7,640 bases of DNA from a virus (taxonomy: Monodnaviria; Loebvirae; Hofneiviricota; Faserviricetes; Tubulavirales): positions 1 through 7,640 of IMG/VR virus record IMGVR_UViG_2651869748_000001. The stretch is one strand, 5' to 3'. Every line of letters starts with the position of its first letter. Position 1 is the stretch's first letter. Below the pieces are notes generated by a model, which was given only the letters and a program-made list of their open reading frames with translations, ran no database searches and was not told where the DNA came from. Below are positions 5,313 to 7,313 of this stretch, piece by piece. The position numbers and the translations under genes were made by a program.

Positions 5313-7313
5313 TCAGGGACAGTTATTGTCACAAGTCCAAGGGTCGGCTTCGCCGCCCCCACCCGCCGCGCGGGAGCGCGTCGTGCGGTGTCGTGAAGCC
5401 GACGAAATAAACACAGATTCATAGCTGCTGCCGCTTCTGACTTCCTCTGCGCGGATTTTTTCTGCGGGGGTCATACGGCGGACAACACAGCCCATAAAAC
5501 GGGTTATGACCGGAACGGGGCCAAACATGAAACCGGAAATCACCGGTGCGCAGGGTTCACCGTAACGGTTAAAACGGGGTTTACCACCTTCCTGCGGCTG
5601 AACGTAAAACGGACGAAGCAGACGTTCAGAACAGAAGAAACCGCCGTTCAGCAGGATATAGGTCCGGAAATCGCCTGCATCACAGGCCATGCGGATGGCT
5701 TCCAGTTCGGCGACCTGCTGCGGCGTGAACTGCTGCATATTGATATGATGCGCCTCAAGCGGTGCGCGGAAGCTGCGCATCTGGCGGTAAGCCGTAACGG
5801 AGGGAACGCCAAAGAACTGGAACAGGCGAAGGCGCGTTGCTTTCTGCCAGCAGGCGGCACGGCTGACGGCATCACAGAATGAACGGGCAGAATAACGGTC
5901 ATTCAGGGCGGTAATACCATCCGCACTGACATCACCCGCCATTTTGGTGATGTACTTCACGATGTAACGGAAACCATCACCCTTTTCAGGGTCAATAGCC
6001 TCAATACGAATACGGTGCTCTTTCGCCCCCTTTTCATCCGGCTCATCGCGCATGGCCTCTTCACGGAAAATGGCCAGCACCGTTGCGCTCTCATGGGGAT
6101 TGCAGTAAATCAGGAAATTCCAGTGCGTTGTACCGTCAGCATGAGGCTCGACCGTGCGCAGACCGGGTATCTGGATACCGGCTTTATCCAGTCTGCGGCA
6201 GACCCGACGCCAGACGGTATTCAGCCAGGCGTGCGAATCCTTAACGGTCGGGCAACCTGCTTCCCACCATTTTTTATTCGGACGAGAATGCCATTTTCCG
6301 GCAACTTTAAAACTGGTCGTCGGGTGAAAACGTGACGGCGTGGTGAGCACGATGAAATAGCCGGACAGCCCCATATCTTCGGACAGTTCACAGACGGCCT
6401 TTCCACGAACGCAGAGTTCAGCAATCCGGTTTTTCGGATTCGAAACAGAGGCGTTATGCGCATCTTCCAGCGTACAGACCAGCTCATTAAACGCATCAAA
6501 GACACCGGAGGACCGGAGATACTTTTTCACGCGTTTACTGCGGACAGCAAACAGGTCACGATGCCAGTCAGAAATATAAGGCGCGTTGCGGTTCAGTATG
6601 CCGAGCATGCGACAGACCTCATTGACCCGCTGGTCACGGATAACCCGCAGGAAACGGGTGACAAAAGCCAAATCAGTCAGACGCTTAAGCAATCCCTCAT
6701 CGCCGTAACGCTCATGATAAGTGGCATAAACGGGGGCGAAATCAAAGCCGGAGATGGCCTGAAAATAGGCCATCACATTGAGAAGGTGATGCTCTGGTAC
6801 ATCACTATAAATGGCCCGAGAAACAAGGCAGTCACGAACAACCGAATCAGCCACCTCAGCAATCTGCTCATCAGTGCAGAAAAGCGAGAATTCATAAGGG
6901 TCTCCGTCCTGATTGAAGAAAGCAAAACGGTGCGCGGACTCAAGCGCCATCAGCGCATTTTTCACACCGAGCTGGTAAACCAGACGGCAGAAAGCATGCG
7001 CCACGGTGAACGAAAACGAGCCAAACTGTGATACCAGTCCGGCAGCCCTGCCCCTGTCAGCGAGAGATAAATCCGTGCAGTTAATTCCGTAAATCACACG
7101 GTCAACCTGCGTGTTACGCGGCAATGCGAGCTGTGCAGATAAGGTCCCGACCTCATCACGATACTGGCGGGAAAGCGTGGCAAAATTGCGGGTGGCAACA
7201 TCGCGCTCAGTCCGAAAATGCACGCGTTCGGGCAGCGTCAGGCAGGGACGACCAAGGGCAACGGATGCCGCGTCGATGGCGTTATACGCTGTAAGGATGG
7301 CTGATTCAGTCAT
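5313..7313 (-). CDS. Rolling-circle replication initiation protein, phiX174/P2 A-protein-like (HUH endonuclease)
   Basis: 666-aa ORF, ATG at 7311-7313 preceded by GGAGGGGGG. Contains [13 protein letters not shown], matching the two-tyrosine Y-x-x-K-Y-x-x-K active-site signature of phiX174 gpA / P2 gpA-type Rep proteins. Upstream [15 protein letters not shown] resembles the metal-binding His motif region. First gene of the phage block. Confidence 0.8.
5343..5403. repeat. GC-rich inverted repeat inside the 3' end of rep
   Basis: GTCGGCTTC (5343-5351) and its exact reverse complement GAAGCCGAC (5395-5403) flank about 43 nt of extremely GC-rich sequence (gccgcccccacccgccgcgcgggagcgcg...). Confidence 0.5.

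Follow-up and report, generated by a model that had tools for sequence, protein, structure and literature searches.

The replication origin of bacteriophage P2 lies within gene A and is nicked by the product of that gene, the A protein, which acts in cis, as would fit an origin lying within its own gene or at the end of it. In the P2 record a "nick site at ori" is annotated at position 29892, inside gene A and within GCGGCATCGCCGCGC-CTCG*GAGTCCTGTCAATAACTGT, and the catalytic tyrosines of the protein have been described (PMC3986222, citing Odegrip and Haggard-Ljungquist 2001). The P2 nick sequence is conserved within the gpA homologue of Vibrio phage PV94 and of the Salinivibrio prophage Smhb1 (PMC3986222, PMC8537503), although these reports concern tailed phages (Peduoviridae) only. 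Among filamentous phages, the CTXphi- and Pf-type origins belong to a different Rep family, PF02486 (PMC4439123, PMC4863604), and the large non-coding region of the vibriophages fs2 and VFJ has been assumed to be an Ff-like intergenic region, an origin at rep being unmentioned (PMC3731265). Here we compare these systems with a locus in the IMG/VR virus record IMGVR_UViG_2651869748_000001, the whole 7,640 nucleotides (nt) of which are referred to as the window. Its rep gene, which encodes an initiator of the P2 gpA family, contains near its 3′ end a GC-rich inverted repeat that is probably the structural hairpin of a plus-strand rolling-circle origin of the P2 gpA type.

The limited literature searched yielded no report of a gpA-type origin in an inovirus, or of a conserved hairpin 5′ to such an origin, and searching full texts for the motif strings of P2 and of the inoviruses gave unrelated primer matches only. 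A paper on UPphi phages was set aside, as it concerns IKe-like phages and not the phage discussed here.

The hairpin and the adjacent nick-site block

The gene order of the window is that of a filamentous phage (inovirus), with every long open reading frame (ORF) on the minus strand. In inoviruses the strand that is packaged and nicked is the gene-sense strand, as established for the Ff phages, and we take the viral strand of this phage to be the minus strand of the window. The features on which the comparison turns are these:

7313..5313, minus strand: rep, 666 amino acids (aa), a P2 gpA-family rolling-circle initiator (Pfam Phage_GPA)
5343..5403, minus strand: hairpin of the proposed origin, with an outer stem of 5403..5395 paired with 5351..5343, imperfect inner stems, 23 base pairs (bp) in total and a 4-nt loop
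5317..5342, minus strand: conserved nick-site block C-CTTGGACTTGTGACAATAACT-GTCC, with a 21-nt core at 5341..5321, overlapping the last 9 codons of rep
5337..5338, minus strand: predicted Rep nick, CTTG/GAC, aligned by homology to P2 nucleotide 29892 and uncertain by about 1 nt

A preliminary description of this DNA had pointed to a perfect 9-bp inverted repeat enclosing roughly 43 nt at 5343–5403, and a repeat finder confirms it: the arms at 5343–5351 (GTCGGCTTC) and 5395–5403 (GAAGCCGAC) are 9 nt long, 100% complementary and 43 nt apart. The element does lie within the 3′ end of rep, as was also stated there, occupying codons 637–657 of the 666-codon ORF and thus falling within its last 30 codons. 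The spacer had been called almost pure G+C, which overstates a composition that is nevertheless GC-rich (36/43, or 84%; 79% for the whole 61-nt element). By itself, a 9-bp repeat is unremarkable in 7.6 kb, as the window contains three perfect 9-bp inverted repeats with loops of 3–60 nt (two of them overlapping) and 300 dinucleotide shuffles give 1.65 ± 1.6. Folded as DNA, the minus (rep-sense) strand of the 61-mer adopts a hairpin of 23 bp with an energy of −27 kcal/mol (z = −4.85) that none of 200 shuffles equals in stability, and the plus strand reaches −21 kcal/mol (z = −2.8). In a sliding 70-nt scan of both strands, the element is the most stable fold of the window, at −27.5 against a mean of −6.6 and a standard deviation of 3.1 (6–7 standard deviations off), and only one other strong hairpin occurs in the complete 8.7-kb genome described below. 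On the strength of this stability relative to shuffles and to the rest of the window, the element is real and non-random as a structure. Two other structured segments occur in the window, namely a second perfect inverted repeat of 10 bp, with arms about 43 nt apart, at 3276–3338 in a GC-rich part of the g3p-like gene, and another stable fold near 3501–3570; both probably reflect the coding of Gly-rich linkers.

Immediately after the hairpin, on its 3′ side, the rep-sense (viral) strand reads CTTGGACTTGTGACAATAACT (5341..5321), a sequence that matches the P2 ori nick region CTCGGAGTCCTGTCAATAACTGT when aligned to P2 29889–29909. In its context, GAAGCCGAC-C-CTTGGACTTGTGACAATAACTGT, the block agrees with P2 at 19 of 24 positions, including TGTCAATAACTGT here and TGACAATAACTGT in P2; the window holds one copy, against an expectation of 0 by chance. 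Carried over from the P2 annotation, the Rep cut would fall at CTTG|GAC (5338/5337), approximately 5 nt beyond the foot of the hairpin on its 3′ side. The suggestion in the preliminary description that the repeat is an origin-associated structure inside rep, as in P2 and phiX174 replicons, is therefore supported by the gpA-family Rep, by the abutting P2-like nick block and by the family-wide occurrence of the hairpin; the predicted nick itself falls outside the repeat and the coordinates given there (5343–5403), about 5 nt further 3′. The 3′ end of the block, AACTGTC (5318–5324, minus strand), has a 7-nt inverted copy at 5261–5267, 50 nt downstream at the start of the next gene, which is probably due to chance.

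The protein encoded by rep is a homologue of P2 A. It matches PF05840 (Phage_GPA) with an E-value of 5.9e-49 and 167 bits (cut-off 31.4), and aligns with P2 A by BLASTP at 29% identity across 407 aa (E 2e-36). The Y-x3-Y pair falls at Y450/Y454 in both proteins, where RYIVKYITK of the window Rep aligns with GYIAKYISK of P2, and Y450, Y454 and K457 are invariant among 28 relatives. H391 and H397 are invariant as well; P2 A has HWH at the HUH position, within EPHHDGTPHWHM. Other initiator types fit less well: the Ff-type gpII family PF23343 scores 17.5 bits, below its cut-off of 27.8, and the candidate origin is inside rep, and the window contains no match to PF02486 (the RstA, Rep_trans-type family) as would be expected of a CTXphi-, Pf- or VGJ-type origin.

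The correspondence with P2 extends to the layout of the origin. In both phages the site is found on the sense strand, past the 3′ end of the segment for the catalytic core but still within rep, and the block is immediately preceded on its 5′ side by a GC-rich stem; in P2 this stem is GCGGC-ATC-GCCGC, ending 2 nt before the block. The two nonetheless differ in several respects. P2 is a double-stranded DNA myovirus with its site 431 nt before the stop codon, a 5-bp stem and an HWH motif, whereas the phage of the window is a single-stranded DNA filamentous phage with the site spread over the last 9 codons, a 23-bp hairpin and HWN.

Conservation of the block among relatives

Conservation was assessed in a family sample of 80 loci, one genome per species, picked by conserved Rep peptides alone; Rep identity is 26–46%, and the hosts include Salmonella, Xenorhabdus, Vibrio, Shewanella, Aeromonas, Nitrosomonas and Thiobacillus. 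The block occurs with at most 5 mismatches in 74 of these 80 loci, always on the rep-sense strand and always 3′ of the catalytic core, for an estimated chance rate of about 0.02 matches per locus. Positions 22–25 (GT[A/C]C), which lie beyond the search pattern, are likewise conserved. An exact-match scan of IMG/VR recovered the block in at least 120 viral contigs, as a single copy per contig among those listed. Among the Escherichia coli relatives L001–L010 (95%, 87% and 65–72% identity), the stretch CCCTTGGACTTGTGACAATAACT just 3′ of the hairpin is invariant, although the coding flanks are heavily diverged and the hairpin varies in sequence and length.

The block is conserved at the nucleotide level regardless of the coding frame. 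All three frames are used: it is read as PWTCDNN in the window, as LDL-stop in L003 and L011, and in the third frame by others, with products such as LGLVTI, and L004 differs from L003. It is situated 1–13 nt past the rep stop codon in L022, L025, L030, L092, L094 and others, and 150–790 nt within rep in P2-like loci. In L003 and L004, a 1-nt difference in the run of C residues before the motif (equivalent to 5340–5350) shifts the frame of the Rep C-terminus, one of the two ending in ESPPLDL*, and the last 10–20 residues of Rep thus appear dispensable.

Motif positions 7 and 10 (5335 and 5332 on the minus strand of the window) vary together: among 129 distinct sites, 110 have C-G and 18 have G-C, with one exception. 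These positions are only 2 nt apart, too near for pairing within a hairpin, and the covariation could reflect one event in a single clade, or else a contact that Rep requires for recognition. A further observation concerns L092 (DQ288668), which is labelled as a CTXphi RS2 element. Its "RstA-like protein" is a 709-aa gpA-type Rep and not canonical RstA, and an exact copy of the motif is present at 3303–3323, 1 nt past the stop codon in the rstA–rstB spacer.

Conservation of the hairpin in position

The 70 nt immediately 5′ of the block fold with a mean of −16.1 kcal/mol, compared with −7.3 in control windows from the same rep genes (Wilcoxon p 2e-14), and in 55 of 89 sequences this segment is more stable than each of its own control windows. 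Dinucleotide shuffles of each sequence give a median z of −2.2, with 55% below −2, against a median of 0.1 and 5% for a control 300 nt upstream. The 3′ arm of the hairpin stops 0–1 nt before the block in 55 of the 89 sequences, and the same holds for 28 of 32 distinct sequences in an independent IMG/VR sample; in most relatives the distance is 0–2 nt. As stem lengths range over 5–27 bp, these anchored folding statistics were used instead of a covariance model.

The stems themselves share no sequence between clades, as illustrated by a perfect 26-bp stem in L030 and by stems of the GGCGGC-NNN-GCCGCC type in P2-like loci. Within the Enterobacterales clade, 16 pairs can be aligned; 89% of their cells are paired, and compensatory change is seen in 10 of the pairs. 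This is matched by 0 of 500 shuffles, and slid registers are 25–61% paired. The preliminary description had asked for conservation of the repeat independent of codon changes in related phages, and this holds for the block and for the position of the hairpin. It does not hold for the 9-bp arms, as a T.G replaces one arm pair in the 95%-identity relatives and the outer stem is missing at 87% identity. The exact 9-bp arms are specific to the sublineage of the window, and the conserved feature is a hairpin at that position, not the sequence of its arms. In a short-stem class (L102, L105, L116, L119, L126, L128, L138 and L150), where the hairpin consists of 5–7 bp of GC with a 3-nt loop, an A-rich run (AAAAA or ACAAACAA) regularly precedes it; the long-hairpin type of the window lacks such a run. 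We propose that a GC-rich hairpin 5′ to the nick sequence is a feature of the gpA-type origin family.

Comparison with other origins and HUH systems

The annotated phages nearest by Rep are the vibriophages fs2 and VFJ and Shewanella phage Dolos, at approximately 30% identity, with P2-like tailed phages next. All three share the gpA-type Rep and have a hairpin and motif at or just past the rep stop codon, but they belong to other genera, their hairpin sequences are unrelated to that of the window, and the origin is unannotated in their records.

A resemblance to the phiX174 gene A origin (CAACTTG|ATATTAATAAC) can also be drawn. That origin is likewise inside the initiator gene, contains the words ACTTG and AATAAC, and is cut after CTTG. 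The spacing is off by 1 nt (ACTTG-N5-AATAAC versus ACTTG-N4-AATAAC), there is no 5′ hairpin in phiX174, and, if the homology to P2 holds, the cut here would follow the first CTTG and not the second. The resemblance was rejected as evidence, being too short and off by one in its spacing, and may be due to chance.

HUH enzymes of the relaxase and IS200/IS605 insertion sequence groups recognize a hairpin and cut a few nucleotides 3′ of its foot. The geometry of relaxase oriT sites, with an inverted repeat 5′ of nic, and of IS200/IS605 ends, including those of IS608, is the same as that proposed here, and by this analogy the origin architecture, with the hairpin 5′ of the cut, would be closer to relaxase oriT and IS608 than to Reps that nick in a loop. 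The proteins and sequences are unrelated, and so the analogy is one of mechanism only. The origins of Ff phages (f1/M13, gpII) and of CTXphi (RstA) are filamentous-phage rolling-circle origins that also have hairpins near the nick (PMC4439123). These employ other Rep families and are intergenic, and CTXphi is nicked in the loop of a hairpin, in contrast to the motif here, which lies 3′ of the hairpin.

Weighing the origin against other explanations

Several points weigh against a P2-type origin. The window Rep and the consensus of its inovirus relatives have HWN at 6117–6125 on the minus strand (residues 397–399) where P2 has HWH, the second His having been replaced by Asn in the clade of the window. 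The predicted position of the nick rests on the GenBank annotation of P2 and is uncertain by about 1 nt. About one-third of relatives are without a convincing hairpin within 3 nt of the block; the 87%-identity E. coli relatives L003 and L004 have lost the outer stem, keeping a terminal hairpin of 6–7 bp, and the P2 stem is only 5 bp, so that a long hairpin is not strictly required. Finally, the covariation count in the Enterobacterales clade took G.T as a pair, and the structure tested was derived from the same alignment.

An additional single-strand function is the only rival with real support. The hairpin might serve mainly the single-stranded stage, as a packaging signal or in minus-strand priming, with its adjacency to the nick site being incidental; in the Ff intergenic region, the hairpins for packaging, the minus-strand origin and the plus-strand origin are adjacent to one another. 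It is the strongest viral-strand hairpin of the window as well as one of the two strong ones in the complete genome, the median hairpin is 20.5 bp in contigs of at most 13 kb and 6 bp in those of at least 25 kb (Mann-Whitney p = 0.001), and motifs near the rep stop codon are associated with −17.1 kcal/mol, compared with −11.4 for those deep in rep. Phage type is gauged here only through contig size and motif position as proxies, and the trend in hairpin length is thus a lead. However, phages that lack a single-stranded virion, namely P2 and P2-like double-stranded DNA phages, also have a hairpin at this position, the register of the hairpin with the nick motif is fixed (gap of 0–1 nt), and a promoter scan revealed no promoter-like hexamers nearby. 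We regard this explanation as unlikely; it is in any case compatible with an origin role and would then be a second function. A role in RNA, whether as an attenuator, a terminator or a messenger RNA structure tuning the 141-aa ORF that follows rep (start at 5282), is very improbable. The hairpin would form in the messenger RNA too, precedes the next start codon by 60 nt, and sits at the junction of rep and the next gene in most inovirus relatives, yet it does not sequester the ribosome-binding site (GAGGAG, near 5290) and no relevant Rfam match was obtained. A terminator or attenuator is unlikely given that CCCTTGGACTTG, with no T/U run, follows the stem, that a terminator scan is empty at 5343–5403, and that the hairpin and motif in P2-like relatives lie 150–790 nt inside rep, away from gene junctions.

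The element could also have no function in cis, as a by-product of a low-complexity tail rich in Gly, Ala and Arg or as a GC-rich palindrome that arose by chance. AAGGGG is indeed encoded here, and the perfect 9-bp repeat is statistically ordinary; against this, the tail peptide is not conserved, with relatives using other frames or ending rep earlier, the potential to form a hairpin is kept with unrelated sequences and compensatory changes, and the fold is 6–7 standard deviations under the window mean. The coding constraint that the preliminary description had offered as an alternative is excluded by the frame analysis of the block in relatives, and the absence of any cis function is extremely improbable overall. 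Least probable of all is the other alternative raised there, a recombination or attachment site of the Xer/dif type (attP), or an inserted small mobile repeat such as a repetitive extragenic palindrome (REP) or a miniature inverted-repeat transposable element (MITE). Folded single-strand hairpins do serve as attP in related integrative filamentous phages (PMC4439123). However, no dif-like arm is present in the element, and a recombination site is disfavoured because the dif-like forked hairpin of this phage (AGTGCGCATAATGT...ACATAACGCCATTGTGCGCACT) is located elsewhere, beyond the window in the intergenic part of the complete genome; the evidence on prophage junctions likewise points to that dif-like site throughout. 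A dispersed repeat of the REP, BIME or MITE kind is excluded by the distribution of the 61-mer, which occurs at 57 places in 33 of the 5,426 E. coli genomes searched, all of them in the "replication endonuclease" genes of this prophage. The hairpin together with its adjacent nick block is most likely a real but fairly ordinary cis-acting element, in view of the conservation of the nick-site sequence in very distant relatives.

The phage and its distribution

Besides rep, the minus strand of the window carries:

5282 (start), minus strand: 141-aa ORF, the gene after rep
minus strand: several small ORFs
minus strand: a Phage_Coat_A protein
minus strand: a Zot-type assembly ATPase
minus strand: a secretin

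Near-identical prophages are present, often in multiple copies, in 42 of 5,426 complete E. coli genomes, and one Citrobacter plasmid record also contains the phage. The prophage or its fragments occupy up to 11 places per E. coli genome, with a median of 2. Most E. coli matches end at the start of rep (about 7307–7313), so that the region upstream of rep (7314–7640) varies between strains. Deposited phages gave no DNA-level match to the window by megablast.

A metagenomic contig, L095 (8,731 nt, with an 11-nt terminal overlap), encodes a Rep 98% identical to that of the window and appears to be the complete circular genome of the phage. Relative to the window, it contains in addition a divergent helix-turn-helix repressor gene and an intergenic region. 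A second strong viral-strand hairpin (−27 kcal/mol) is located at 1–100 of this contig, between the secretin and repressor genes, and consists of two dif-like half-sites in inverted orientation, AGTGCGCATAATGTGACATGCGTTATGT ... ACATAACGCCATTGTGCGCACT, enclosing a GC stem that has A and T runs on its flanks. This segment resembles a folded single-strand attP for XerCD in the style of CTXphi, and the break of the metagenomic contig falls exactly at AGTGCGCATAA.

Proposed mechanism and implications

The recognition, nicking, priming and termination steps proposed for this origin are drawn from established knowledge of HUH initiators and of P2. The origin would be composed of two elements, a hairpin defined by its shape and a nick block defined by its sequence, and Rep would recognize the conserved block through its sequence and the adjacent hairpin through its shape. 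Rep would then cleave the viral strand at the predicted site, with Tyr450 or Tyr454 taking the 5′ end and the free 3′-OH priming leading-strand synthesis. One round later, the hairpin could re-form on the displaced single strand and present the regenerated site for a second cleavage and joining, releasing a circular viral strand. The Gly-rich tail of Rep would be origin sequence translated where the ORF reads through, an explanation for the odd low-complexity C-terminus of the protein.

A further idea, which is possible though doubtful, is that the short P2 hairpin has grown to 20–27 bp in filamentous phages that use a P2-type Rep, owing to a second task on the single-stranded DNA, and that a contact between motif positions 7 and 10 is also involved. 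The second task could be termination and circularization, priming of the complementary strand, or a packaging signal. Were this so, functions that are distributed over a separate intergenic region in Ff phages would be united in a single element at the end of rep. Conceivably, the C-G/G-C swap at positions 7 and 10 may reflect a DNA–DNA contact in the active site of Rep, analogous to the guide pairing of IS608 or the U-turn of relaxases.

The P2-type origin is already known, and its occurrence here is in an undescribed E. coli inovirus; a known system is thus extended, and not a new one described. For P2 itself, the comparison adds a conserved structural component to the origin besides the nick sequence. 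It also provides an annotation rule for the origins of gpA-type replicons, namely a hairpin followed by CTTGGA[C/G]T[T/C][G/C]TGT[C/A]AATAACTGT. In this way the likely plus-strand origin is located for a family of filamentous prophages of E. coli, with an extension to vibriophages of the fs2/VFJ type and to many uncultured inoviruses, and it is placed at the 3′ end of rep and not in the intergenic region assumed from the analogy to Ff phages.

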